A stretch of DNA of 64,000 nt from a virus (Duplodnaviria; Caudoviricetes). The position numbers and the translations under genes are program-made. This document shows positions 485 through 17,875 of the stretch, one piece after another (position 1 is the first letter of the stretch; each line of letters starts with the position of its first letter). A model generated the notes under the pieces. It had not been told where the DNA came from and ran no database searches. It saw only the letters and a program-made list of their open reading frames with translations. Location of the stretch: positions 1-64,000 of the IMG/VR virus record IMGVR_UViG_3300003316_000244. One strand, given 5' to 3'.

Positions 485-2425
485 CTATAATCTAGGATCA
501 ATATTTTGTTCGGTATTTATTTCAATAATCATTTGAGCAAGTAATTGTTTATAATCTTCATTTTCTTCATTTATTAAATGATATGGAGTTTGAAGCATTT
601 TAATTCCTAATTCAAATTCAGAAATTGATGTTCTTAATTTTCTTTTAATATTTTTCTTCCTTAAAAGTTTATTATATTTTTTTTCAAATTTGTAATTATG
701 ACCATAAACAATGGTTAAATAATTTTTATTACGAACTTTTAAATATGGAGCAATGCCTTTGTTATATACCTTTTCTGGTTTAACAACAACACCTTCCATA
801 CCAAGTTTTAACGTAATTAAATTATAAAAATTATCAATATTATCTATTAAATGTATATTTTTTTGAAAAACATCAACCATATAATTTTTATCATCTTTTT
901 GTTTTTTAAAATCTAAAATACCATATATAGTATCATCATCTTTTAATTTTTCAAAAATTTCAATATTACTTTGATTTTCAAATGTTATTTCAGTATCATC
1001 TTCATATACAATTTTTAATATAGAAAATGGTTTAATTTCATTTTTAATGTCAGAATGAGTATATAAATAAACCTGATTATCATAATTTTCAATATATTTT
1101 TTTTCTTCTAATAATGGAATATGAATATAAGAATTATAATTACGAAATGTTCTTTCTTTAGTATTACCATATTTAGTGGTAAGTTGTTCTTTATTCATTA
1201 TTTTAATATCATCTATATATTCAAGATATTCATTATTATATTTAATAGAATTTAATATTACTTCAAATCCAGTTTCATTTAATAAATTAATCTCACTTTT
1301 AACACCAACTCCAATAGAAGTAAATTGTTGATCTATTAATCCTTTTCCCATTAATTTCCAAGGAAGAATTTCACAGTCCAACAGAATCATTTTAATCCTA
1401 GTATCTTTTTCAATAAATTTTTCATAATATGGTTTTGCCATTCTAATAATTTCTTCGTGCGAAATATAATTTTCTTTTATTTTATATCCATTTCTGGATA
1501 CAAGATATGTTTGTTCAATATCTTTAAAAAGATAAAGATTTCCACGACTTCCCATATATTTAGGTTGAAGTATCAATTTTTCAATACCTAAATTTTGATA
1601 ATATTTAATAGCTTCATTTAATGATTCAATATCATTTTCACCTTCATTTTTATCAGATGGTGACATTGTACCTGAAATAAAATTTATCTTATCTTTAATT
1701 AAGTATTTTATTCTGGTACGATCTTCAGGTTCTAATTGTGATAAATTATATACTTTATCTTTATCATTATATATTGAAACAATATCATTCAGATTATTAT
1801 TTTTAGATAATGAATCAACATGTTGGATATATGGTTTCCCATTTTTATTAATATGAATAGATGTAAGTCTGCCACCTGCAGCACATCCAGTATCTATCAT
1901 ATATTTGTTCTTAAAATTAACAACCTCTTTAATTGCAACATGTCCCATAATATGAAGAGGATTATTAAATTTAGCTTCATTATTTAAAAAAGAAAAATAA
2001 TTTTCAAGTTCCTCATTATATTTATCATCAGTTTCAAAATCAGCTCTTTTAGGATATATTAAATTTCTTTGATTTTTTAATGCTATTGGTGTAACTTTCC
2101 CTAAAACATCTTCCTTGCATGGTGCATGTGTTACTATAAAATCTCTATGTGTTAAAAATTCTTTTGACCCTTCAAATATTTCAAAAAATTTATTTCTTAA
2201 AATTTCATTTTTTTCTAAAATATTAATTGAATCAAAAAATAATTTTTCTAATTCTTTATCTCTATTAATAAGTTGTCCTTTTAAGGCTTTATAAACATAA
2301 TTTTCATGATTTCCAATGGTTAATAAAATTCGTCCATTTTTCCAATTTTTATATATAAATTCAATAGTGTTAATTAAATCAACACCTTTATCTAAAAAAT
2401 CTCCATTAATTATTATTTTTTTCAT
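485..2425 (-). CDS. pnkp: Pnkp C-terminal part: remainder of the metallophosphoesterase plus RNA ligase (adenylyltransferase) domain
   Basis: Phosphoesterase motifs GDFLDKG, GNHE, THAP, MGH, IDTGC; ligase motifs QPKYMGSR, LDCEILPW, EGVVVKP, YLKVR. Confidence 0.9.
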   Translation of the reverse strand: MKKIIINGDFLDKGVDLINTIEFIYKNWKNGRILLTIGNHENYVYKALKGQLINRDKELEKLFFDSINILEKNEILRNKFFEIFEGSKEFLTHRDFIVTHAPCKEDVLGKVTPIALKNQRNLIYPKRADFETDDKYNEELENYFSFLNNEAKFNNPLHIMGHVAIKEVVNFKNKYMIDTGCAAGGRLTSIHINKNGKPYIQHVDSLSKNNNLNDIVSIYNDKDKVYNLSQLEPEDRTRIKYLIKDKINFISGTMSPSDKNEGENDIESLNEAIKYYQNLGIEKLILQPKYMGSRGNLYLFKDIEQTYLVSRNGYKIKENYISHEEIIRMAKPYYEKFIEKDTRIKMILLDCEILPWKLMGKGLIDQQFTSIGVGVKSEINLLNETGFEVILNSIKYNNEYLEYIDDIKIMNKEQLTTKYGNTKERTFRNYNSYIHIPLLEEKKYIENYDNQVYLYTHSDIKNEIKPFSILKIVYEDDTEITFENQSNIEIFEKLKDDDTIYGILDFKKQKDDKNYMVDVFQKNIHLIDNIDNFYNLITLKLGMEGVVVKPEKVYNKGIAPYLKVRNKNYLTIVYGHNYKFEKKYNKLLRKKNIKRKLRTSISEFELGIKMLQTPYHLINEENEDYKQLLAQMIIEINTEQNIDPRL

Positions 2426-2679
2426 TCCTTATTTTTTCGTTTATTATATTCTACCGAAATAAATGTTCCAATAAAACCACCAATTGCTGCTGCAATAATA
2501 AGCGTTTTATCATGAACGTAATTAATAGTGGTTAGTGCTCCAAATAATAAAATAATGGAACTCCATGATGCTGCTGCAAAACTTTTCTTTTCACCAACTT
2601 TTATAAAATACATTGTCCAACAAATATCTGACAATGTAACTAAAATTATAATAGTTATAAATTGTAACCAATAACTCAT
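2422..2679 (-). CDS. Small membrane protein (85 aa, about 3 TM helices) lying inside the pnkp locus
   Basis: Three hydrophobic segments, GGFIGT motif, basic C-tail; starts 1 nt after the pnkp-N stop and overlaps the pnkp-C start (ATGA). Confidence 0.75.
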   Translation of the reverse strand: MSYWLQFITIIILVTLSDICWTMYFIKVGEKKSFAAASWSSIILLFGALTTINYVHDKTLIIAAAIGGFIGTFISVEYNKRKNKE

Positions 2680-2680
2680 A

Positions 2681-3421
2681 TTAATCTATTATTAAATCAT
2701 TTTCATCAATAGTAAAACCATTTTTAATTAACAAATTTTTTAACTCTTGATACGATTGGTGTACATCTCCTATAATTGTATATTCATCTTTTTCAGATAA
2801 AAAAAATGATTTATACCATTCTTTATTTTCAATTTCAATTTGAATTTCTGAAAAATTAATTGTTTTTATTTTTTGAAGGTTAGGATATATTTTTTTTGTA
2901 TATTCTGCTTGTTTTTCTTTAAATTTTTTTAAACTATTCGATATAATTTTTTTTCCAAATGAATCATTATTAGTTGCATATTTAAAATAATCTTCCCGAT
3001 TTCTATAATCAAAAACAATTGGACAAAATGTATAATTTACTTTTTTTGCAATTTCTTCCATTTCGTCTCTAAATTCTTTAGCAAGACCAGTTGTATCAAT
3101 AATAACAAAATCTGCATTCATTGGAAATGAGGTTACAGCAATTAATTTTTCACTAAGTAATGAAAATGCTTTTGCACTAACATAACTCATTCTATCATCA
3201 TTTTTATTAATATAATTTTTATCAGTAAATGGATTAAAACCTAAAAGTTCTCTTCTAATATTATCTGAAGAAATATATTGAATATTTATTGGTTTATTCA
3301 TCTCTTTAAATTCTTCTCTAAGTTTTGGAATTAAAAATTCTGTTGTAAAATACGATTTACCAGAATTAGTTGGTCCAATATAAAGAATTATAGATTGTGG
3401 TTTTATTTTTAAAATATCCAT
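2681..3421 (-). CDS. pnkp: Pnkp N-terminal part: polynucleotide 5'-kinase plus first phosphoesterase motif
   Basis: P-loop GPTNSGKS, IIDTTG, and C-terminal IIGDVH phosphoesterase motif I. Confidence 0.88.
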   Translation of the reverse strand: MDILKIKPQSIILYIGPTNSGKSYFTTEFLIPKLREEFKEMNKPINIQYISSDNIRRELLGFNPFTDKNYINKNDDRMSYVSAKAFSLLSEKLIAVTSFPMNADFVIIDTTGLAKEFRDEMEEIAKKVNYTFCPIVFDYRNREDYFKYATNNDSFGKKIISNSLKKFKEKQAEYTKKIYPNLQKIKTINFSEIQIEIENKEWYKSFFLSEKDEYTIIGDVHQSYQELKNLLIKNGFTIDENDLIID

Positions 3422-3426
3422 TTAAT

Positions 3427-4764
3427 TTAAAATTTGATAATTACTCCTTGTGTAACACTTTCATCATTTACTGAATCTCCAATATCAATAAATTCATACT
3501 TAAATGAACCATACTTTGTAAATTCAGTTAACATAAATGATTGGAATTCTGATTTCCCATATTCCCATTTATGATCATCATGTCTCATTCCTTCCATATT
3601 ATAATTTTTATTAAAATCAGCATTTGGTGTTGTAATAACTACAGTTGTACCAATTTTTTCTTTACAAAAGAAAAATAAATCTTTAAGAAAAATTTTTACA
3701 TCATCAATTGCCATATGCTCTATAACTTCAGAGCATATTATATCATATTTTTCATTATCATCAAATTCATCAATAAAAGAATTAAATGATTGGTAATAAA
3801 TAATATTATCAATGCCTTTCCGTTCGGCTTTAATTTTTAATTTATTTAATGATTCTTCATCTATATCAATTGCATGATAAAATTTTCCTTCATTTAATTT
3901 TGGTGCAAATTTTAAAGCATAACGTCCTTCACCACAGCCAATATCAATAATTTCATTTTTTAAATTCAAAATATTATTAATATAATCTATTCGTTGGATA
4001 TGTGTGTCTCCAAATTTAAATTCTATCTTTTCACTTTTACTATTTTCTAATTGAGATTTGAATTTTTGAAAAAGATTACTTCTTTCATTAAATAATCTCA
4101 ATTTAAAAAGATATTTAATATAATATGGTGCATCTAATGTTTGTATTATTTTTATGTATCTTTCAATTAAATCTTCTTTAACAAATAGATATTCATTATC
4201 ATTAATCATTACTAAAAATAATGAAAGTAAACTTGCATAATTTATTAAATGATGAAGTGTTTTATTTGTTTTTATTATCAATTTATAATTATTACCTGAT
4301 TGTATAACTTCTTCTAAAGAATAATCAGGAAATGATTTTTTAAAAAATAAAAGATATTTTGAAATACCAACATGAACCATATTAATGGTCATTTCATTTT
4401 CATAACCTTCAATATCTTTTTCAAATTCTTCATATTTATTATTTTCTAAATGACCAAAATATTCTTTAATTGCTAAAGACATAAACATAGAAGAATTATA
4501 TCTTGTAAGATTCAAATATTCAAATTCTTCATCTTTAAATTTTTTAAATGATATTTCATCAAATCCATCTCTAAAATAAATAACATAAGTGTCATTAGAC
4601 TTAATTGAAAAATATCCAAATAACAATCCTTCCTTAAGAGTTTTAATTAACATTGGAATTGGCTTCTTTTCGTTTGAATTAAATTCCTCTGAAGGAATAA
4701 ATGGACGTTTTTGTATTACAAAAGAAAAATCAGGATTATTTGATTTTAATGTTAAAATTGACAT
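3427..4764 (-). CDS. hen1: Hen1 3'-terminal RNA ribose 2'-O-methyltransferase
   Basis: N-terminal Hen1-like strand (ILTLKSNNPDFSFVIQKRP); SAM motif DIGCGEG, EVIEH, TTPN, RHDDHKWE; adjacent to pnkp. Confidence 0.9.
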   Translation of the reverse strand: MSILTLKSNNPDFSFVIQKRPFIPSEEFNSNEKKPIPMLIKTLKEGLLFGYFSIKSNDTYVIYFRDGFDEISFKKFKDEEFEYLNLTRYNSSMFMSLAIKEYFGHLENNKYEEFEKDIEGYENEMTINMVHVGISKYLLFFKKSFPDYSLEEVIQSGNNYKLIIKTNKTLHHLINYASLLSLFLVMINDNEYLFVKEDLIERYIKIIQTLDAPYYIKYLFKLRLFNERSNLFQKFKSQLENSKSEKIEFKFGDTHIQRIDYINNILNLKNEIIDIGCGEGRYALKFAPKLNEGKFYHAIDIDEESLNKLKIKAERKGIDNIIYYQSFNSFIDEFDDNEKYDIICSEVIEHMAIDDVKIFLKDLFFFCKEKIGTTVVITTPNADFNKNYNMEGMRHDDHKWEYGKSEFQSFMLTEFTKYGSFKYEFIDIGDSVNDESVTQGVIIKF

Positions 4765-9287: not shown

Positions 9288-9602
9288 ATGGAAAAAAAAT
9301 TTGATTTTATTAATTTATTTTTTAAGGTAGCAATAGGATTAAGCCTATTTTTTTTCGTGCTTTGTGTTTATTTTTCATATAAACAATTAAAAATTAAAAC
9401 TCAAGTTTTAATGGAAATTGAATATTGTAATGGTAAAATTGATACCATTTTTACAACAATTGATGGTGAATCAAAGTATCTTTTTATTCAAAATAATGGT
9501 AATAGATCATCAGTACCTGAACTTAAATCATTTAATCATAAATTAATTTTATTAAATGTTTGTTCCTTCAAAATTTTAAACGAAAATAAAATAGAACAAT
9601 GA
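9288..9602 (+). CDS. Membrane-anchored hypothetical protein (104 aa)
   Basis: N-terminal TM helix; ATGA overlap with nrtR; TATCTTTG (-7 box) at 9265-9272. Confidence 0.6.
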   Translation: MEKKFDFINLFFKVAIGLSLFFFVLCVYFSYKQLKIKTQVLMEIEYCNGKIDTIFTTIDGESKYLFIQNNGNRSSVPELKSFNHKLILLNVCSFKILNENKIEQ

Positions 9603-10276
9603 AACTAGCTGTAGATGCTGTTGTCTTTGCATATAAAGATGGCAAATTAAATGTTTTAATGATTAAAAGAAATTTTAAACCATTTGAAAATTATTTTGCA
9701 TTACCGGGAGGTTTTATTAAAGATAATGAAACTGCAGAAGATGCAATTAAAAGAGAACTATTAGAAGAAACAGGTATCGAAATTAATTATTTAGAACAAC
9801 TTTATACTTTCACTAATCCAAATCGTGATCCAAGAGAACGTATCATAAGTCTTGCATACTATGGATTAATAAATCCAGACAAATATAGTTTAATTGCTGG
9901 TATTGAAGCATCTGAAGTTAAATGGATTCCAGTTAAAAATATAATATCTAAAGTAAATACATTTGCATTTGATCATGGATTAATTGTAGATTATGCTTTA
10001 ACAAGACTTCAAAATAAAATTAAATATGAACCAATTGGTTTTGATCTATTACCCGAAAAATTTACATTAGGTGAACTTCATAGACTTTATTCAACAATAT
10101 TAGATAAAGAAATTGAAAGAAGAAATTTTAATAACAAAATTTTGAAAATTGAAATTTTGGAATTTCTAGATGAAAAAAATCAAACGACTTCAAAAGGTCG
10201 TAAAGGTAATTTATTTAAATTCAATAATGAAAAATATAAATCATTGAAGATCAATGGGTTTGATTTTAGGTTTTAA
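9599..10276 (+). CDS. nrtR: NrtR-family Nudix-related transcriptional regulator
   Basis: N-terminal Nudix box (ALPGGFIKDNETAEDAIKRELLEETG) and C-terminal winged HTH (LLPEKFTLGELHRLY...RRNF...GRKGNLF). Confidence 0.9.
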   Translation: MKLAVDAVVFAYKDGKLNVLMIKRNFKPFENYFALPGGFIKDNETAEDAIKRELLEETGIEINYLEQLYTFTNPNRDPRERIISLAYYGLINPDKYSLIAGIEASEVKWIPVKNIISKVNTFAFDHGLIVDYALTRLQNKIKYEPIGFDLLPEKFTLGELHRLYSTILDKEIERRNFNNKILKIEILEFLDEKNQTTSKGRKGNLFKFNNEKYKSLKINGFDFRF

Positions 10277-10292
10277 AATATTTTATTTATTT

Positions 10293-10323
10293 TTTGCTTT
10301 TTAAAATAATTTGTGTAATTTTA
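10293..10323 (+). promoter_or_regulatory. Bacteroidota-type promoter of the NAD operon
   Basis: TTTG(10293-96)-N19-TAATTTTA(10316-23), 7/8 match to TAnnTTTG. Confidence 0.6.
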
Positions 10324-10333
10324 ACACAAATTA
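10307..10333. promoter_or_regulatory. Predicted NrtR operator
   Basis: Perfect palindrome TAATTTGTGT-AATTTTA-ACACAAATTA with GT-N7-AC core, between nrtR and nadM. Confidence 0.8.
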
Positions 10334-10351
10334 AAGTATTTAAAATTATAT

Positions 10352-11242
10352 ATGGAAAATAATACAGAAATTGGATGTATAATTGGTCGTTTTCAAGTCC
10401 ATGAATTACATGAAGCTCATAGAGCATTAATTGATACTGTTATTCAGAATCATAGAAAAGTTATATTATTTTTAGGTGTTTCACCAGTTTTAGGTTCTAA
10501 AAGAAATCCTTTAGACTTTCCAACAAGGAAAGCAATGATTGATCAAATTTATGGTGAGAAAATAAGTGCTATATTACCTATTCATGATAATCGCAGTGAT
10601 TTTGCTTGGTCAAAAGAAATAGATAAGAGAATTAAAGAAGTATTCCAAATTGGTGATGTTACTCTTTATGGATCAAGAGATTCTTTTATTCCACACTATA
10701 AAGGTATTCACAAAACAATAGAACTTGAAAGTAAACATTTTATATCTGGTACATCAATTAGAAAAAATGTTTCACAAACAATATTATCAACAAATGAATT
10801 TAGAGCTGGAGTTATTTATGCAACATATTCACAATATCCAATTGTTTTTTCAACTGTTGATGTTGCAATATTAAATGATCAAAACGAAATTCTATTAGCA
10901 AGAAAACCTTCTGATCCAGAAGGATTACATAGATTTGTTGGTGGTTTTGTTGATGTTAAAGATAATTCAGATTATGCTGCATGTATCAGAGAAGCATATG
11001 AAGAAACTAATTCAGTAATAGAACCATATGAATTTGTTTGTTCTGCTCAAATTAATGACTGGAGATATTCTAAAGAAGAAGATAGAAAAATTATGACCAG
11101 ATTATATAAAGCAAAATACATTTCTGGTAAAATAGAACCACGGGATGATATTTCAGAATTACAATGGTTTAATTTTAAAAATTTAAATTTAGATATGTTT
11201 GTTCCAGAACATAGAATTTTAGCTAGTAAATTGTTTATCTAA
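10352..11242 (+). CDS. nadM: Bifunctional NMN adenylyltransferase / ADP-ribose pyrophosphatase (NadM-Nudix, NatV-like)
   Basis: IIGRFQVHELHEAH (HxxH), RNPL, ISGTSIR; C-terminal Nudix box GGFVD...REAYEET. Confidence 0.9.
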   Translation: MENNTEIGCIIGRFQVHELHEAHRALIDTVIQNHRKVILFLGVSPVLGSKRNPLDFPTRKAMIDQIYGEKISAILPIHDNRSDFAWSKEIDKRIKEVFQIGDVTLYGSRDSFIPHYKGIHKTIELESKHFISGTSIRKNVSQTILSTNEFRAGVIYATYSQYPIVFSTVDVAILNDQNEILLARKPSDPEGLHRFVGGFVDVKDNSDYAACIREAYEETNSVIEPYEFVCSAQINDWRYSKEEDRKIMTRLYKAKYISGKIEPRDDISELQWFNFKNLNLDMFVPEHRILASKLFI

Positions 11243-11256
11243 AAATATAATTAATT

Positions 11257-12636
11257 ATGAAAAAAGAAAATTTAATATTATTAACAGATAGTTATAAATT
11301 TAGTCACGCTTTTGCTTATAATAAAAATGTTACAAAAGTTTATTCATATCTTGAAAGTCGTGGTGGTAAATTTCCATATACTCTATTTTTTGGATTACAA
11401 TACTATTTAAAAAAATTTTTAGAGGGTAAAGTAATCACTCAAAACGATATTGAAGATGCTCATACTTTTTGTAAAAAACATTTTGGAAGAAATGATGTTT
11501 TTAATAGTGATGGTTGGAGAAATTTATTAAAAAAATATGATGGAAAATTACCTTTACATATTAAAGCAGTTGAAGAAGGTTCGATAGTTCCAACTGGAAA
11601 TGTATTAATGACAATAGAAAATACCGATCCAGAATTTTATTGGTTAACAAATTTTGTTGAAACACTTCTAATGAAAGTTTGGTATCCAACAACAGTTGCA
11701 ACACAATCAAGAGAAATAAGAAAAAGAATTAGTGATGCTTTAGAGAAAACTGGAACACCTGAAACAATAAATTTCAAATGTCATGATTTTGGATATCGTG
11801 GAGTTAGTAGTGAAGAACAAGCAGGATTAGGTTCTGCAGCACATTTGCTTTCATTTATGGGAACTGATACTATTGCTGGTATAACAATGTTAGAAAATTA
11901 TTATAATGGAGATATGTCTGGTTTTAGCATTCCAGCAACAGAACATTCAATAATATGTTCTTTTGGAAAAGAAAATGAAATAGAAGCTTATCGTCATTTT
12001 TTAAATGAATATTTTGAAGGTACTATTGCATGTGTTTCGGATACATATAATATTTATAATGCATGTGAAAATATTTGGGGTGGGATTCTAAAAGAAGAAG
12101 TATTAAAAAGAAATGGTACATTAGTTATTAGACCAGATTCTGGTGATTATATGGAAGTAGTACCAAAAATTTTAGATATTCTTTGGAATAAATTTGGTGG
12201 TACTATAAATGATAAAGGTTATAAAGTTCTTGATTCACATGTTCGAGTTATTCAAGGTGATGGTATGAATTTACAATCAATAACTGAATTATATAGTTTA
12301 TTAACCAGATTAAAATGGTCTGCAGATAATTTGGCTGTTGGTTCTGGTGGTGGACTTCTTGAAGAAGGTCTTACGAGAGATACTCAAAAATTTGCAATTA
12401 AAGCATCTGCTGTTCAAATGTATACTGGTGAATGGATTGGAATTCAAAAAACTCCAATCACTGATTCTGGTAAACGTTCTAAAATGGGTAGACTTAAATT
12501 GATAAAAGATCAAAATGATGAATTTAAAACAGTCAATGAAAACGAAGAAGGAACAGATTTACTAAGAACTGTTTTTTTAAATGGTGAATTATATAATAAA
12601 ACTGATATTGAAACTATTAGAGAAAAATGTTTATGA
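11257..12636 (+). CDS. nadV: Nicotinamide phosphoribosyltransferase (NAMPT)
   Basis: LLTDSYKFSH, HDFGYRG, IPATEHS, VSDTY, VIRPDSG, IQGDG, GSGGGL. Confidence 0.93.
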   Translation: MKKENLILLTDSYKFSHAFAYNKNVTKVYSYLESRGGKFPYTLFFGLQYYLKKFLEGKVITQNDIEDAHTFCKKHFGRNDVFNSDGWRNLLKKYDGKLPLHIKAVEEGSIVPTGNVLMTIENTDPEFYWLTNFVETLLMKVWYPTTVATQSREIRKRISDALEKTGTPETINFKCHDFGYRGVSSEEQAGLGSAAHLLSFMGTDTIAGITMLENYYNGDMSGFSIPATEHSIICSFGKENEIEAYRHFLNEYFEGTIACVSDTYNIYNACENIWGGILKEEVLKRNGTLVIRPDSGDYMEVVPKILDILWNKFGGTINDKGYKVLDSHVRVIQGDGMNLQSITELYSLLTRLKWSADNLAVGSGGGLLEEGLTRDTQKFAIKASAVQMYTGEWIGIQKTPITDSGKRSKMGRLKLIKDQNDEFKTVNENEEGTDLLRTVFLNGELYNKTDIETIREKCL

Positions 12637-13067
12637 TTACTGATCCATATTTTTCACATAATTTATCTGTTAAAAGATTATTAGATGTTTATAAAAAACA
12701 TAATACATTATTTATAGCTATTGATTTTGATGATACATTTTATGATTGTCATAATCAAGGATATAAGTTCAACAATGTTATTCAATTAATTAAAGATTGT
12801 AATAATTTAAATTTTAAAGTAACCATTTTTACAGCATCAAAACCTAGTAGATTTCAATTAATGCTTGATTATTGTGATCAAATAGGAATTAAAGTAGAAG
12901 GAATCAATAAAAATCCAGAAAATCTTCCTGAAGGAATTGGTAGTTCTGGAAAAATTTTTTATAATCTACTTCTAGATGATAGAGCTGGTTTAGATTCTGC
13001 CTATAAAATTTTAAAAGAAGTTGTTGACATAATCAAACAAATTCATATTAATAATGAAAAAATATAA
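12627..13067 (+). CDS. HAD-superfamily hydrolase-like protein
   Basis: Motif I IAIDFDDT, motif II TAS, motif IV LDDRA. Confidence 0.7.
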   Translation: MFMITDPYFSHNLSVKRLLDVYKKHNTLFIAIDFDDTFYDCHNQGYKFNNVIQLIKDCNNLNFKVTIFTASKPSRFQLMLDYCDQIGIKVEGINKNPENLPEGIGSSGKIFYNLLLDDRAGLDSAYKILKEVVDIIKQIHINNEKI

Positions 13068-13557
13068 TAATTCAATAGTTAATGCAATAAATAATGCTTT
13101 TGTAGAAAAAGAAAAAAGAGGTTGGTCTAAATTATATTTTTTCTTTGATATTCATCAAACAATATTATATCCTGATTACAATAATAATGATCCTAAAAGA
13201 TTTTATAAACATGCTAAAGTTGTATTACAATTTCTTTCAAACCATAAAGATATTGAAATGGGTTTATATACATGTTCATATCCCAATGAGATAGATAATT
13301 ACCTACAATTTTTTAAAGAAAATAATATTAATTTTTTGCATATAAATAAAAATCAAGATGCTAAAGATACAACATATGGTTATTATCAGGATAAACCATA
13401 TTATAATGTCTTATTTGAAGATAAGGCTGGTTTTGATGCTGAAACAGATTGGTTAGAAATAAAAAAATATTTTAATATTAAAACCATAGAAGATGCTAAA
13501 TTGGAACGTGATTGGGAAATGATTCATAAAATCAATAGTATTTTGAGAGGATGGTAA
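13054..13557 (+). CDS. HAD-superfamily hydrolase-like protein (paralog of upstream gene)
   Basis: FFDIHQT, YTCS, INKN, FEDKAG align with the previous ORF. Confidence 0.65.
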   Translation: MKKYNNSIVNAINNAFVEKEKRGWSKLYFFFDIHQTILYPDYNNNDPKRFYKHAKVVLQFLSNHKDIEMGLYTCSYPNEIDNYLQFFKENNINFLHINKNQDAKDTTYGYYQDKPYYNVLFEDKAGFDAETDWLEIKKYFNIKTIEDAKLERDWEMIHKINSILRGW

Positions 13558-14528
13558 ATAAAATTTTAAATATGACAAAAGACGAAGCAATAAACTTAAT
13601 TAATAATGCTAAATCATTAGTTGATGTTTTTCCCGATTTGAGTGTATGGAAAAATCAATATAAAAAATTAGCAATGCTTATTCATCCAGACCATTGTAAT
13701 ACAACCGAAGCAGAACAAGCATTTAAAATTCTTGCAGAATTTGTTTCTAAAATAGAAAAAGGAAGTAAACATAATGATGACTCAGGAGAAATAAAATATA
13801 AAATTATTGATGCATCAATTCTTGATAATTTATCAACAATTAAATCAGTTCTTGGAGTAAAAGAATTACCTATTGTAACAGAGTTAATCCTTAAAGGAAA
13901 ACCTGAATTAAATAAAATTTCATTATATAATTATAATATATTAACAAATCTGAAAGATAAATCTTCAGAACATTTTAAAAAATATTTACCAATATCTATT
14001 ACCAAAATATCTGATAACGAATTAAAAATCATATTACCATATAGAGCTGTTCCCCTTTCAAGTTTAGGTGTTTTACCTCAAGAACATGTTAATTGGATTC
14101 TGAGTAGAATGTTAGAATTTTCTTCTTGGTTGAATCAAATAAAATTTGTCCATGGAGGAATCAATCCAGATAGTATATACATAATTCCAGAAAATCATGG
14201 TATGATTTGTACATCATTTTATCATATGAGTAAATTAGATGATAAAATGAAAACAATATCAGGTAAATATTCACAATTTTATCCTTCAAAAGTTTTTACA
14301 TCAAAAAAAGCAACTTCAGATATCGATATTGAACTTTCAAAAAGAAGTGCAATTTATTTATTAGGTGATACTTCTGGTGCAGGTATAAAATTAAAGAAAA
14401 CACATAATGTTAATATATTAGATTTTATATTTAAAAATCATAATATACCTTTAAATGCATATAAAGAATATAGAGAAATTTTAAATAAAAATTATGATAT
14501 GAAAAAGTTTCATGTTTTAAAAGCGTAA
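13551..14528 (+). CDS. J-domain fused to a protein-kinase-like (probably pseudokinase) domain
   Basis: YKKLAMLIHPDH (HPD) J-like N-terminus; VHGGINPDSI catalytic-loop-like segment lacking the catalytic Asp. Confidence 0.65.
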   Translation: MVNKILNMTKDEAINLINNAKSLVDVFPDLSVWKNQYKKLAMLIHPDHCNTTEAEQAFKILAEFVSKIEKGSKHNDDSGEIKYKIIDASILDNLSTIKSVLGVKELPIVTELILKGKPELNKISLYNYNILTNLKDKSSEHFKKYLPISITKISDNELKIILPYRAVPLSSLGVLPQEHVNWILSRMLEFSSWLNQIKFVHGGINPDSIYIIPENHGMICTSFYHMSKLDDKMKTISGKYSQFYPSKVFTSKKATSDIDIELSKRSAIYLLGDTSGAGIKLKKTHNVNILDFIFKNHNIPLNAYKEYREILNKNYDMKKFHVLKA

Positions 14529-14560
14529 ATAATAATTAAAATAAACAAAAATTAAAAATT

Positions 14561-15481
14561 ATGGGATATTCAAATTGGTCAAATGATGCTTATGCAAATT
14601 TAAGCTCATCTTATGCTAGTAAATCTACTAATGATATTTTTACAAGCAACAAAACTCGTAAAGCTGATGATTCTTTTACTCCAGATAAAATTACATTCAG
14701 AGAGTCTAGAGATAGTGTAGAACATCCAAATTCTGTTGCAGTTGCTGTCTTTTTGGATGTAACTGGAAGTATGGGAGAAATACCAGAAAAAATGGTACGT
14801 GAAAATCTTGGAACATTAATGAATACATTAATTAAACACGAAGTAAATGATGCTCATGTGTTATTTGGTGCAATTGGTGATCATTACAGTGATAGATTTC
14901 CACTTCAAATTGGTCAATTTGAAACAGGTACTATAGAATTAGATCAAAGTTTAACAAAACTTTATCTTGAAGGTGGAGGTGGTGGAACACAACAAGAATC
15001 ATATCTTCTTGCTTGGTTATTTGCTGCAAGACATACATCAATTGATTGTTTTGAAAAAAGAAATCAAAAGGGTATATTGTTTACCATTGGTGACGAAAAA
15101 TCACATAGTAAAATTGAAGCGGATAAATTAAAATCATTAATGGGATATACTCAAGCAGATACGTTAACCGATGAAGAACTTTTAAATGAAGTTAAAAGAA
15201 TGTATCATGTATTTCATATTCATATTAATGAAGCATCATATAAAAACAATCCAAACATATTAAATTATTGGAAAAATCTTCTTGGAGAACGGTTGATTAT
15301 TCTTGATGACCATAATAGAGTTGCAGAAATTATTGCATCTACTGTTGCAGTAATACATGGTGCCGATTTAAATAACATTATATCAGGATTTAATCCATCT
15401 GTTGCTCTTACTGTAAAAAATGCTCTTGCTAAAGTAGATTTGTCTGTTTCAAAAACAAATGATAGTGTCATAAATCTTTAA
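14561..15481 (+). CDS. von Willebrand factor A (vWA) domain protein
   Basis: MIDAS-like LDVTGSMG, EGGGGG..ESY, FTIGDE. Confidence 0.8.
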   Translation: MGYSNWSNDAYANLSSSYASKSTNDIFTSNKTRKADDSFTPDKITFRESRDSVEHPNSVAVAVFLDVTGSMGEIPEKMVRENLGTLMNTLIKHEVNDAHVLFGAIGDHYSDRFPLQIGQFETGTIELDQSLTKLYLEGGGGGTQQESYLLAWLFAARHTSIDCFEKRNQKGILFTIGDEKSHSKIEADKLKSLMGYTQADTLTDEELLNEVKRMYHVFHIHINEASYKNNPNILNYWKNLLGERLIILDDHNRVAEIIASTVAVIHGADLNNIISGFNPSVALTVKNALAKVDLSVSKTNDSVINL

Positions 15482-15490
15482 TAATATTAA

Positions 15491-16633
15491 ATGAAAAAAA
15501 ATATTGTAATAGGTTTGGGTTTTGGAGATGAAGGTAAGGGGTTAATGACCTCTTACCTCGTTTCTAAATCACTTAAACCATTAGTCATTAGATTTAATGG
15601 TGGACAACAAGCAGGTCATACTGTTTCTTTTAATAATAAAAGACATGTATTTTCAAATTTTGGATCAGGTACATTACAAAATGCTCCAACTTATTGGTCA
15701 GAATTTTGCACAATTGATCCTCTTGCTTTATTTAATGAATATAATAGTTTAAAAAATTTAGGTTTTTTAAATCCTGAATTAATTATTGATCCATTATGTA
15801 TGGTTACAACACCATTTGACATTACTGCAAATCACATATATGAATCAACAAAAAAACATGGTTCTTGTGGTGTTGGTTTTGGGCAAACAATAAAACGAAA
15901 TGAAGATAATTATAAACTTCATGCTATTGATATGCTCTATCCTGAAATTTTAAAAGAAAAATTAAAAAATATTATGAATTATTATAATTTAATAAATCAT
16001 AATAATATTATTGAAAATTTTCTTAATTATGTCAAATTATTAATTCATAATTCTATTATTAAAATAGAAAAACCAAATTTTATTAAATATGATGAATTAA
16101 TATTTGAAGGTGCCCAAGGAGTAATGCTTGACATGGATTTTGGATTTTTCCCAAATGTAACAAGATCAAATACTACAAGTAAAAATGCTTTCACTATTTT
16201 AAAAAATAATAAATTAACTACTGATGATGTAGAGATAAATTATGTGAGTAGAGTTTATCAAACAAGACATGGTAATGGTTATATGACAAATGAAGACTAC
16301 CCACTTCATTTAAAAAATAATGAAAATGAGACAAATGTAAATAATAAATATCAAGGTAAATTCAGAATTGGTGCTTTAGATATTAATTTACTTAATTATG
16401 CGTTGATGATCGATGATACTTTTTCATATAATCAAAAGAAAAACATATTATTCACCTGCTTAGATCAAGTTCAATCACCAACTTCAATATCCTGTAGTTT
16501 AAATAATGTTGTTAGAACTATGAGTTTAGACGGAATTCTTTCAGAATTAAAATTTGAATTTAATAATATCCATACTTCTTACGGACCAAGTTATTCAAAT
16601 ATTGTAGAATTCATACCAAAATTATTTTTCTAA
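15491..16633 (+). CDS. Divergent adenylosuccinate-synthetase-like (PurA-family) protein
   Basis: GLGFGDEGKG, RFNGGQQAGHT, SCGVG, FEGAQG, VTRSNT; 380 aa with a non-canonical substrate loop (TRHGNG). Confidence 0.8.
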   Translation: MKKNIVIGLGFGDEGKGLMTSYLVSKSLKPLVIRFNGGQQAGHTVSFNNKRHVFSNFGSGTLQNAPTYWSEFCTIDPLALFNEYNSLKNLGFLNPELIIDPLCMVTTPFDITANHIYESTKKHGSCGVGFGQTIKRNEDNYKLHAIDMLYPEILKEKLKNIMNYYNLINHNNIIENFLNYVKLLIHNSIIKIEKPNFIKYDELIFEGAQGVMLDMDFGFFPNVTRSNTTSKNAFTILKNNKLTTDDVEINYVSRVYQTRHGNGYMTNEDYPLHLKNNENETNVNNKYQGKFRIGALDINLLNYALMIDDTFSYNQKKNILFTCLDQVQSPTSISCSLNNVVRTMSLDGILSELKFEFNNIHTSYGPSYSNIVEFIPKLFF

Positions 16634-16669
16634 TAAAATTAATAACATTTTGATCATTATAATCGTATA

Positions 16670-17242
16670 ATGATCATGAAAAAATATTTATTTTTAACAC
16701 TTTTCTTATTTCCAAATATCCTGTTTGGACAACAGGTTCTTTATGAACCTCATATTAATATATTAGAAACAAATAAAACTAATGAAATCAAATGGCTTAA
16801 TTATTCAGATAAACCATTTGATTATATCTTAGATAGATACATTACGTTCATTAATCCAGATAATGATGATCTAGTTAATGAACTAGTTACAATACAAATA
16901 ATTGCAATTGGAAAGAATAAAAAAAGGATATTAGACACTTTTTATTGTAATATTGGAGAAAATAATTCTAATCATCTCTATTCCTTTTTAAGGATAAAAG
17001 AAAATGAGAATTTAATTTTTGAAATTAATTATTCTTCAATTGACCATCCTAAATTAATTTTTGATATTTTTTCTAAATCTAAAGAAAATAATCTAACAAA
17101 AAAGAATGAAAATAAGGAGATTTTTATTATAAACGATAAAAAATTTAAAGAAAAACCTTTAAAAAAACACAAAAATCAAGATAAATCATTCCTTTTTAAG
17201 GCATTAAAATTTACAGTAGAACTTTCTTCAAATTTATTGTAA
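16670..17242 (+). CDS. Secreted hypothetical protein (signal peptide)
   Basis: MKKYLFLTLFLFPNILFG-Q signal peptide. Confidence 0.6.
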   Translation: MIMKKYLFLTLFLFPNILFGQQVLYEPHINILETNKTNEIKWLNYSDKPFDYILDRYITFINPDNDDLVNELVTIQIIAIGKNKKRILDTFYCNIGENNSNHLYSFLRIKENENLIFEINYSSIDHPKLIFDIFSKSKENNLTKKNENKEIFIINDKKFKEKPLKKHKNQDKSFLFKALKFTVELSSNLL

Positions 17243-17298
17243 CCTTTTGTAACCGACAATCGTATAATAATCAGAAATCAACAATTAAATAAAAAATT

Positions 17299-17823
17299 AT
17301 GAAAAAACAAACAATTTCTTATCTTTTGATCGCCTTTGCGATGATGTTCGTACTTTCAAGTTGTGGTGATAAAACTGATGATCCACAGCCTGTAGTAAAA
17401 ACTGATCTTCAAAAAGTTCAGGAAGCAGTAAGTGGTTCAACATGGGTATTAATTTCAGCAGATGTTGTTACTAATGGAAAAACATATCACTATAATGGTG
17501 ATTGTAACTTCTCAGTCTTTAACGATCTTGGCGATAAAGCTGCAGCAACATCTACAAATACTGTAGACTTTACCTATATTTTTAATGGAATATCACTCTC
17601 TTATACTCAAGAATGTGGTTCACAAACTGGAACTAATATACCATACACAATTGCTGAAAATTCTGGAAAATTTACACTTACATACAAACATGGAACAGCA
17701 AATGTAATATTTGAATTGGTAACTCCAGTAGATGAATTAAAAACTGCAACATCTGTCACAGTTAAACTTTTAACATTGAATGCAGGAGCAACTTCTTCAA
17801 CTCTAGTTTATAAGAAATCTTAA
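17299..17823 (+). CDS. Bacteroidota-type lipoprotein (possible lipocalin-like fold)
   Basis: Lipobox LSS-C followed by acidic GDKTDDP; TWVLISA motif. Confidence 0.75.
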   Translation: MKKQTISYLLIAFAMMFVLSSCGDKTDDPQPVVKTDLQKVQEAVSGSTWVLISADVVTNGKTYHYNGDCNFSVFNDLGDKAAATSTNTVDFTYIFNGISLSYTQECGSQTGTNIPYTIAENSGKFTLTYKHGTANVIFELVTPVDELKTATSVTVKLLTLNAGATSSTLVYKKS

Positions 17824-17844: not shown

Positions 17845-17875
17845 AAAAAGCCACTAAATTTTAGTGGCTTTTTTT
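17845..17875. terminator. Bidirectional intrinsic terminator
   Basis: AAAAAGCCACTAA...TTAGTGGCTTTTTTT between convergent genes. Confidence 0.85.

Follow-up and report, generated by a model that had tools for sequence, protein, structure and literature searches.

Bacterial NrtR proteins are repressors of NAD (nicotinamide adenine dinucleotide) genes that combine a Nudix domain with a winged helix and that act on palindromic operators, derived as 21-bp sites with a GT-N7-AC core, in regulons with nadM/nadV targets such as nrtR / nadM-nadV in Synechocystis and nrtR-prs-nadV in Shewanella and in Cytophaga hutchinsonii (Rodionov et al., 2008, PMC2330246). ADP-ribose (adenosine diphosphate ribose) releases the Shewanella and Synechocystis proteins from DNA in vitro (PMC2330246). 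A phage pathway that rebuilds NAD, NARP2, is encoded in Vibrio phage KVP40 by adjacent genes for nicotinamide phosphoribosyltransferase (Nampt) and a bifunctional nicotinamide mononucleotide (NMN) adenylyltransferase (Nmnat)/Nudix protein, and overcomes Thoeris, DSR, and other NAD-depleting defenses (Osterman et al., 10.1101/2024.02.11.579819). The NARP1 pathway is self-limiting since ADP-ribose is its substrate, whereas NARP2 runs and makes excess NAD regardless of depletion, uses phosphoribosyl pyrophosphate (PRPP), and is described as wasteful and somewhat toxic (10.1101/2024.02.11.579819; 10.64898/2026.01.28.702374). Here we analyze the first 64 kb (the window) of the 75,190-bp IMG/VR virus record IMGVR_UViG_3300003316_000244, in which an nrtR gene, a palindromic operator, and genes for two NARP2-type enzymes lie side by side. 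We propose, with a probability that we put at about 70%, that the phage carries a one-promoter NrtR switch on an NAD-rebuilding operon and that this switch is induced by NAD cleavage, via ADP-ribose or a close derivative.

The locus has in common with the bacterial regulons a Nudix and winged-helix repressor, a GT-N7-AC operator, and nadM/nadV targets, and its order nrtR-operator-nadM-nadV is found in many Bacteroidota genomes. It differs from those regulons in being encoded by a giant phage, in having an NrtR that belongs to a separate phage clade and a single operator, in the position of the -7 box inside the operator spacer, in the intact Nudix box of the repressor, and in the extra genes of the operon. 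It shares with KVP40 a two-enzyme NAD route (predicted in the window), adjacent genes, and a large phage as carrier. However, the published NARP2 is described as unconditional, with no regulator reported, while that of the window lies behind a putative metabolite-sensing repressor and has a divergent Nmnat domain.

The assignment of the window gene to the NrtR family is strongly supported by sequence comparison. The product matches Pfam NUDIX over residues 4-118 (67 bits, cut-off 21.1) and PF21906 NrtR_WHD over residues 147-208 (71.6 bits, cut-off 27), and both domains are covered by the PDB matches to BtAraR of Bacteroides thetaiotaomicron (5bs6, E 1.4e-43) and to the Shewanella protein SoNrtR (3gz5, E 4.7e-30). 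In the BtAraR-DNA crystal structure, the GTGT motif is defined by K179, R180, and N181 together with K204 and R205 of the wing (PMC4666351). The window residues R174, R175, N176, K199, and R201 align with these, and R174, R175, N176, G200, and R201 are invariant across the aligned phage and bacterial NrtRs (alignment A1), so that the DNA-reading residues that have been kept fit the GTGT/ACAC core of the predicted operator. BtAraR has the same fold and the same GTGT-reading residues as the window protein (5bs6, 5dd4; Chang et al., 2015, PMC4666351), but its ligand is L-arabinose, its Nudix box is lost, and Gly89 stands where SoNrtR has Arg98, while the window NrtR keeps both the box and the arginine (R79) and is linked to NAD genes. 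The box, GX5EX7REUXEEXGU, is complete at residues 38-60 (GFIKDNETAEDAIKRELLEETGI), which is the case in neither SoNrtR nor AraR, and a sister group of phages (contigs L072 and L008) has the degenerate form RKLKEETN. NrtR relatives with an intact Nudix box can be active ADP-ribose pyrophosphatases (Rodionov et al., PMC2330246) and, because its catalytic box is intact, the window NrtR may also destroy its own inducer. In a quick maximum-likelihood tree of 90 NrtRs (IQ-TREE), the window protein forms one clade with those of the contigs L003, L070, L072, L008, and L074 (SH-aLRT 98), with the L073 and L075 proteins placed elsewhere. Because the six phage NrtRs form one clade, we regard the switch as an old feature that a giant-phage lineage has retained rather than as a recent acquisition, although the gene order in the window mirrors the bacterial one.

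The palindrome that follows nrtR is, with strong support from the motif comparison, the predicted NrtR operator over a Bacteroidota-type nadM-nadV promoter. It is perfect, as the preliminary description of this stretch had stated, with the left arm TAATTTGTGT at 10307-10316, the spacer AATTTTA at 10317-10323, and the right arm ACACAAATTA at 10324-10333, and its positions 10309-10331 fit the family motif ATTTGYGT-N7-ACRCAAAT with 0 mismatches. The other coordinates of that description also hold; nrtR lies at 9599-10276, the ATG of the nadM-like gene is at 10352, and nadV begins at 11257. Scanning with this motif finds one copy in the whole 75-kb record, where 0.21 are expected at up to 2 mismatches. 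We dropped the rarity of the palindrome as evidence, as perfect 10-nt-arm palindromes with spacers of 0-12 are common in this AT-rich window: there are 51 nested matches, roughly 20 of them distinct, against a second-order Markov expectation of 8.9, of which 0.72 have a spacer of 7. Since such palindromes are not unusual here, the significance of the site rests on the specific motif.

This specific motif is abundant next to bacterial nrtR genes. We sampled 80 loci of the closest bacterial NrtR relatives, mostly from Bacteroidota, with 43-55% identity and 749 kb in total. With the GT-N7-AC core mandatory, these contain 35 exact sites, where Markov simulations predict 0, and 129 sites when up to 2 mismatches are allowed, where 0.7 are predicted, an enrichment of about 180-fold, with at least one site in 64 of the 80 loci. 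The usual layout is a tandem pair about 52-54 bp apart, 3' of nrtR and 5' of nadM-nadV or of a nadV-like gene, and a third site is often located about 40 bp 5' of nrtR itself. All of this agrees with the GT-N7-AC palindromes of Rodionov et al. (PMC2330246). No second or autoregulatory operator with an intact core was found in the search of the window, though relatives and bacteria often have them. Since the window operator fits the consensus seen at nrtR loci of Bacteroidota, cross-talk with a host NrtR of that type is conceivable. When the viral contigs of the whole collection were scanned for ATTTGTGTAANTTTNACA, 59 matches were obtained, with nad genes only at the one already known. A 25-nt near-copy of the operator (L014 6460-6477; also L054, L055, and L066) is taken to be a chance match; in L014 it lies inside a 1062-aa open reading frame (ORF) with no nad genes nearby.

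The preliminary description had suggested scanning this genome and its relatives for the box, and the motif recurs 5' of nadM in giant phages. The NrtR-bearing giant-phage contigs are L072 (also designated L002; 362,603 bp, with terminal repeats and 100% complete), L070 (325,854 bp), L073 (288,572 bp), L074 (246,768 bp), and the 131-kb contig L008, and the closest NrtR, with 68% identity to that of the window, is on the 3.9-kb fragment L003. The position of nrtR varies among them: it is directly 5' of the operon in the window and L003, at the far end of the operon in L072 and L074, and upstream by about 6 kb in L008 and L070 and by 1.4 kb in L073. The motif, usually in two copies, is nevertheless directly 5' of nadM or of a small leader ORF that precedes it in L072, L074, L008, L070, and, more weakly, L073. 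Hence, the motif tracks the target gene nadM and not the regulator gene nrtR. In L074 the arms read ATTCGTGT-N7-ACACGAAT, with a matching change in both, as expected of a site that is read by a symmetric dimer. In the genomes G002 (362 kb, 100% complete) and G004 (247 kb, 79% complete), the pair upstream of nadM contains the only core-intact (GT/AC) matches at up to 2 mismatches, which makes the phage NrtR appear to be a switch dedicated to a single promoter. Shortly 3' of the operator is a GTATTTA box (10336..10342, + strand), which has the same offset in six phages (the window, L003, L072, L008, L070, and L074). A longer form of this box, GTATTTATA, is present in four relatives, and its opposite strand, TATAAATAC, resembles a T4-type late promoter.

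The sigma-A promoter of Bacteroidota has a -33 TTG and a -7 TAnnTTTG element, as known from Bacteroides and Flavobacterium. The pattern TTG-N19-TAnnTTT(G/A) is matched in the window at 10294-10323. The -7 box had previously been placed entirely within the palindrome, and this stands as to its position, in accordance with the TTG-N19 spacing and with the relatives, although the box falls one base short of the consensus. At the same position and with the same N19 spacing, the -7 box is TAAATTTA in L003, TAACTTTG in L072, TAACTTTA in L008, TAACTTTG in L070, and TACTTTTG in L074, those of L072, L070, and L074 being perfect consensus boxes, so a promoter with its -7 box inside the operator spacer has been kept in six phages. 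The overlap also explains why the nominally "free" spacer is conserved in phages, since the spacer holds the -7 box. A repressor dimer on the operator would sit over both the -7 element and the expected start of transcription and would thus block RNA polymerase. A scan for sigma-70 promoters was uninformative (36 found, 35.8 expected). Pfam and PDB matches, motif enrichment, and conservation in phages thus agree with the earlier identification of the regulator as NrtR and of its operator as lying over the nadM-nadV promoter.

The region from 10352 to 17823 contains nine co-directional ORFs that overlap or are separated by gaps of at most 56 nt. A scan for host-type promoters on the + strand within this region gave no match, and the single + strand terminator-like match, at 16720-16736, is inside an ORF. 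Therefore, 10352 to about 17.8 kb is probably one transcript, and the hairpin between the convergent genes that follow is likely a two-way terminator that closes the operon. The preliminary description overlooked this probable longer operon, together with the intact Nudix box and the Bacteroidota-consensus operator with its possible cross-talk to the host. The features of the locus are listed in Table 1.

Table 1. Features of the nrtR-nadM-nadV locus, given in window positions
Feature	Position	Strand	Basis
ORF of 104 aa, function unassigned; stop overlaps nrtR start (ATGA)	9288..9602	+	ORF list
nrtR	9599..10276	+	Pfam NUDIX and NrtR_WHD
-33 TTG of Bacteroidota-type promoter	10294..10296	+	19 nt 5' of -7 box
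NrtR operator (predicted), perfect palindrome TAATTTGTGT-N7-ACACAAATTA	10307..10333	+	Motif comparison
-7 box TAATTTTA	10316..10323	+	Last T of left arm plus 7-nt operator spacer
nadM-like, fusion of an NMN adenylyltransferase-like domain (GRFQ..HEAH) and a Nudix domain similar to ADP-ribose pyrophosphatases	10352..11242	+	Pfam, PDB
nadV, nicotinamide phosphoribosyltransferase (Nampt)	11257..12636	+	NF006629, Pfam
Small HAD-type phosphatase-like gene, overlaps nadV end	12627..13067	+	NF046079 23.7 bits (weak), tblastn
Gene of 167 aa, HAD-like as a lead only	13054..13557	+	Synteny; no Pfam match
Three co-directional genes: weak J-domain match; 306 aa without Pfam match; adenylosuccinate synthetase-like (E 3.7e-49)	13551..16633	+	Pfam
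Two co-directional ORFs (190 and 174 aa), function unassigned, possibly the operon end	16670..17823	+	ORF list
Perfect 10-bp-stem hairpin with flanking A and T runs, between convergent genes	17845..17873	.	Palindrome listing

The nadM-like product matches Pfam CTP_transf_like (24.6 bits, cut-off 21) and NUDIX (54.2 bits, cut-off 21.1) and, in the PDB, 2qjt, 2qjo, and 4kyx. In its Nudix box, D replaces the first E and there is one extra residue before RE, and the enzymatic activity of this protein should not be assumed from its sequence. NadV matches NCBIfam NF006629 with 592.6 bits (cut-off 405) as well as Pfam NAMPT_N and NAPRTase. Homologues of the HAD-type phosphatase-like gene adjoin nadV-like genes in Bacteroidota nrtR loci (tblastn). 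The 167-aa gene belongs to a family of about 150-167 aa, with homologues 3' of nadM-nadV in four Bacteroidota loci (L076, L088, L107, and L128) and next to nrtR in L072 (6565-6999) and L074 (5476-5892); the usual DxDxT motif reads D-I-H-E-T in the L002 copy. The three genes that follow are separated by at most 32 nt, and in a Flavobacterium (L149) homologues of the 306-aa and adenylosuccinate synthetase-like genes follow nrtR and its two operators. At 16651-16676, the start codon of the 190-aa ORF (16670) is overlapped by a palindrome with perfect 10-nt arms, TGATCATTAT-N6-ATAATGATCA, which could act within the operon as a signal for translation or processing. The 104-aa ORF upstream of nrtR has no homologue in any related locus.

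The record is rated 23% complete by CheckV, which points to a complete genome of roughly 300 kb or more. The window has a GC content of about 24% and encodes a tail sheath protein (PHROG 23, E 1.8e-63) and homing endonucleases, together with a weak match to the tail-tube protein gp19 (E 0.00034, under the Pfam cut-off). Related contigs of 247-363 kb carry arrays of transfer RNA (tRNA) genes, a ribosomal L7/L12 gene is present on related contigs, and L008 has a ribonucleotide reductase gene. The record is a fragment of a giant phage, the host of which is probably a member of the Bacteroidota. A megablast search of the locus against GenBank phages gave no match. Within the 75-kb record, which is about 23% of the genome, there is no match to Pribosyltran_N, the mark of NARP1 (Prs/Adps), and none to NAD-dependent ligase, Macro, or NADAR domains, which at this coverage is uninformative. 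In L002 a nadV-like gene with 27% identity to the window NadV is followed by a Prs-like gene (Pribosyltran_N and Pribosyl_synth; 1706-4565), and this pair next to nadM could be NARP1-type Adps/Namat rather than Prs and Nampt. A tRNA array and the L7/L12 gene adjoin nrtR in giant phages (L002 6080-6980; L008 6593-6985).

We now put forward a mechanism for the switch in which repression, ADP-ribose as the inducer, the extent of the operon, and host NADase (NAD-cleaving) defense as the main source of the signal are the parts that we infer. The phage would make its own NrtR repressor, a dimer like the solved NrtR and AraR proteins, which on binding to the operator hides the -7 box; because this box lies in the operator spacer, bound NrtR should block RNA polymerase and keep the operon off. 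A host NrtR of the Bacteroidota type could hold the promoter shut when the phage genome enters, and expression of the phage copy could keep up as genomes replicate. SIR2, TIR, and SEFIR effectors yield ADP-ribose directly. Cleavage of NAD would supply ADP-ribose, or a close derivative, as a ligand for the Nudix domain, and NrtR would be released from the promoter. The nadM-like and NadV proteins would then provide the NARP2 route, in which nicotinamide and PRPP give NMN and then NAD, and transcription would continue via the two small HAD-like genes and the three-gene module to about 17.8 kb. The Nudix half of NadM would break ADP-ribose into AMP (adenosine monophosphate) and ribose-5-phosphate, and NrtR may do likewise, which would recycle ribose, remove the inducer, and reset the switch. 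The NAD-rebuilding enzymes would in this way be made only when they are needed, and there would be a selective reason for such gating because ungated NARP2 is described as wasteful and somewhat toxic.

Several points weigh against this mechanism. The evidence for the ligand is mixed. Of the ADP-ribose contacts of SoNrtR (taken from PMC4666351), two arginines, R41 and R98, have conserved counterparts in R24 and R79 of the window protein, the counterpart of R98 being Gly in the arabinose-sensing AraR (PMC4666351), and K76 aligns with E57. However, the phosphate-binding Asn43 is replaced by Phe26, a Phe that is also found in AraR, there is no counterpart of the N-terminal adenine clamp of Tyr10/Phe15, as the window protein begins at about residue 18 of SoNrtR, and the closest solved relative, BtAraR, senses arabinose and not ADP-ribose (PMC4666351). 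The score to NCBIfam NF050029, the equivalog of ADP-ribose-responsive repressors, is 142.6 bits against a cut-off of 400, and we place the window NrtR, on sequence grounds, in the family but in a subfamily other than NF050029. Beyond the ligand, the N-terminal domain of the nadM-like protein is divergent (at most 63.7 bits to the bifunctional NCBIfam models, the cut-offs of which are 340 or more), and its HxGH reads HEAH with two extra residues (GRFQVHELHEAH). The -7 box TAATTTTA ends in A where the TAnnTTTG consensus has G, the window has one operator where relatives have two, and other operators or regulators could lie outside the record, which is about 23% of the genome. ADP-ribose is a plausible inducer for the window protein; release by it has been demonstrated only for the distant NrtRs of Shewanella and Synechocystis (PMC2330246). 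We consider it improbable that the true ligand is another molecule, such as ribose-5-phosphate, ADP-ribose-1''-phosphate, metabolites of the NaAD (nicotinic acid adenine dinucleotide)/NADP (NAD phosphate) type, or a cyclic ADP-ribose immune signal. The loss of the clamp and of Asn43 would be in accordance with this, the family has switched ligand before in AraR (PMC4666351), and several NAD metabolites affected the binding of SoNrtR in vitro (PMC2330246), but, as in ADP-ribose pyrophosphatases, the window protein retains R24, R76, R79, and H126 together with a complete metal-binding Nudix box, and the genomic association with nadM/nadV is very close in bacteria and phages alike.

The source of the signal is a separate matter. 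In the most specific form of the proposal, immune debris is itself the inducer, such that ADP-ribose made by SIR2, TIR, or SEFIR effectors lifts NrtR off one promoter to express NARP2 and uncharacterized genes, with the sensor and its intact Nudix box serving as a threshold filter; we advance this tentatively and give it less than an even chance. Less likely in our estimation is a housekeeping role, in which NrtR caps an auxiliary NAD salvage pathway, shut-off after an early pulse spares PRPP, and ordinary NAD turnover sets the level of ADP-ribose. Bacterial NrtR regulons perform exactly this kind of NAD homeostasis (PMC2330246), the nrtR-operator-nadM-nadV layout is common on Bacteroidota chromosomes, no defense or anti-defense gene was tied to the locus in our analysis, and NARP2 both overproduces NAD and consumes PRPP (10.1101/2024.02.11.579819). 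However, NARP2 was shown experimentally to overcome NADase defenses including Thoeris and DSR, and ADP-ribose is reported to be low or undetectable in uninfected cells of most bacteria, so that a large signal would come most easily from NADase effectors (10.1101/2024.02.11.579819). A housekeeping and a counter-defense function are not mutually exclusive. It is improbable that the phage NrtR acts mainly on the host, either by clamping host genes under NrtR control or by replacing host NrtR that is titrated by copies of the phage genome. The 0 mismatches of the window operator to a motif that occurs beside nrtR in mostly Bacteroidota genomes, and the invariance of the DNA-reading residues between phage and bacterial proteins, would allow such a role, but the motif always tracks the nadM of the phage itself and marks only that promoter in two large related genomes. 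We give very little credence to the idea that the palindrome is only an RNA hairpin that terminates or attenuates transcription after nrtR, or that it arose by chance in AT-rich sequence. It can form a weak hairpin (-9.2 kcal/mol, z = -2.3) and perfect palindromes are common in the window, yet no U tract follows it, relatives keep specific bases (GTGT/ACAC and TTT/AAA) and not pairing, the sites are tandem and are present also where no gene ends nearby, and the same motif is enriched about 180-fold in bacterial nrtR loci. The induction of a one-promoter NrtR switch by NAD cleavage is thus the reading that we prefer.

A comparable arrangement may exist in the cultured 497-kb Bacillus phage G (L156, JN638751.1 200123-204125). 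Its gp273, annotated as a NUDIX hydrolase, is a near-full-length NrtR-like protein with 40% identity over residues 17-208 and is encoded two genes ahead of gp275 (isochorismatase/PncA-like) and four ahead of gp277 (nicotinate phosphoribosyltransferase). Phage G differs from the window in its Firmicutes host, in having a pncA/pncB route instead of nadM/nadV, and in that gp273 is not annotated as a regulator. Another unannotated NrtR relative among GenBank phages is present in a 636-kb uncultured phage. Full-text literature searches for NrtR in connection with phages, and for NARP2, retrieved no paper on a phage-encoded NrtR or on a regulated NARP2. The novelty of the locus is that the NrtR regulon and the NARP2 pathway, both of which are known, are combined in a phage.

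If the proposed mechanism is correct, a repressor of the ADP-ribose type on the NARP2 promoter would give the pathway, by transcription, a conditionality like that of NARP1. This would be a rare case of a metabolite-sensing, inducible phage counter-defense. Were immune debris itself the inducer, it would also be the first counter-defense induced by what the immune effector produces, and the view of NARP2 as unconditional would be overturned. The switch is small and conserved within one clade of giant phages, with a predicted operator that is resolved to single bases, and the phage G NrtR-like gene beside NAD salvage genes offers a possible bench system. The apparent control of additional, functionally unassigned genes by the same promoter would tie those genes to the biology of NAD and ADP-ribose.

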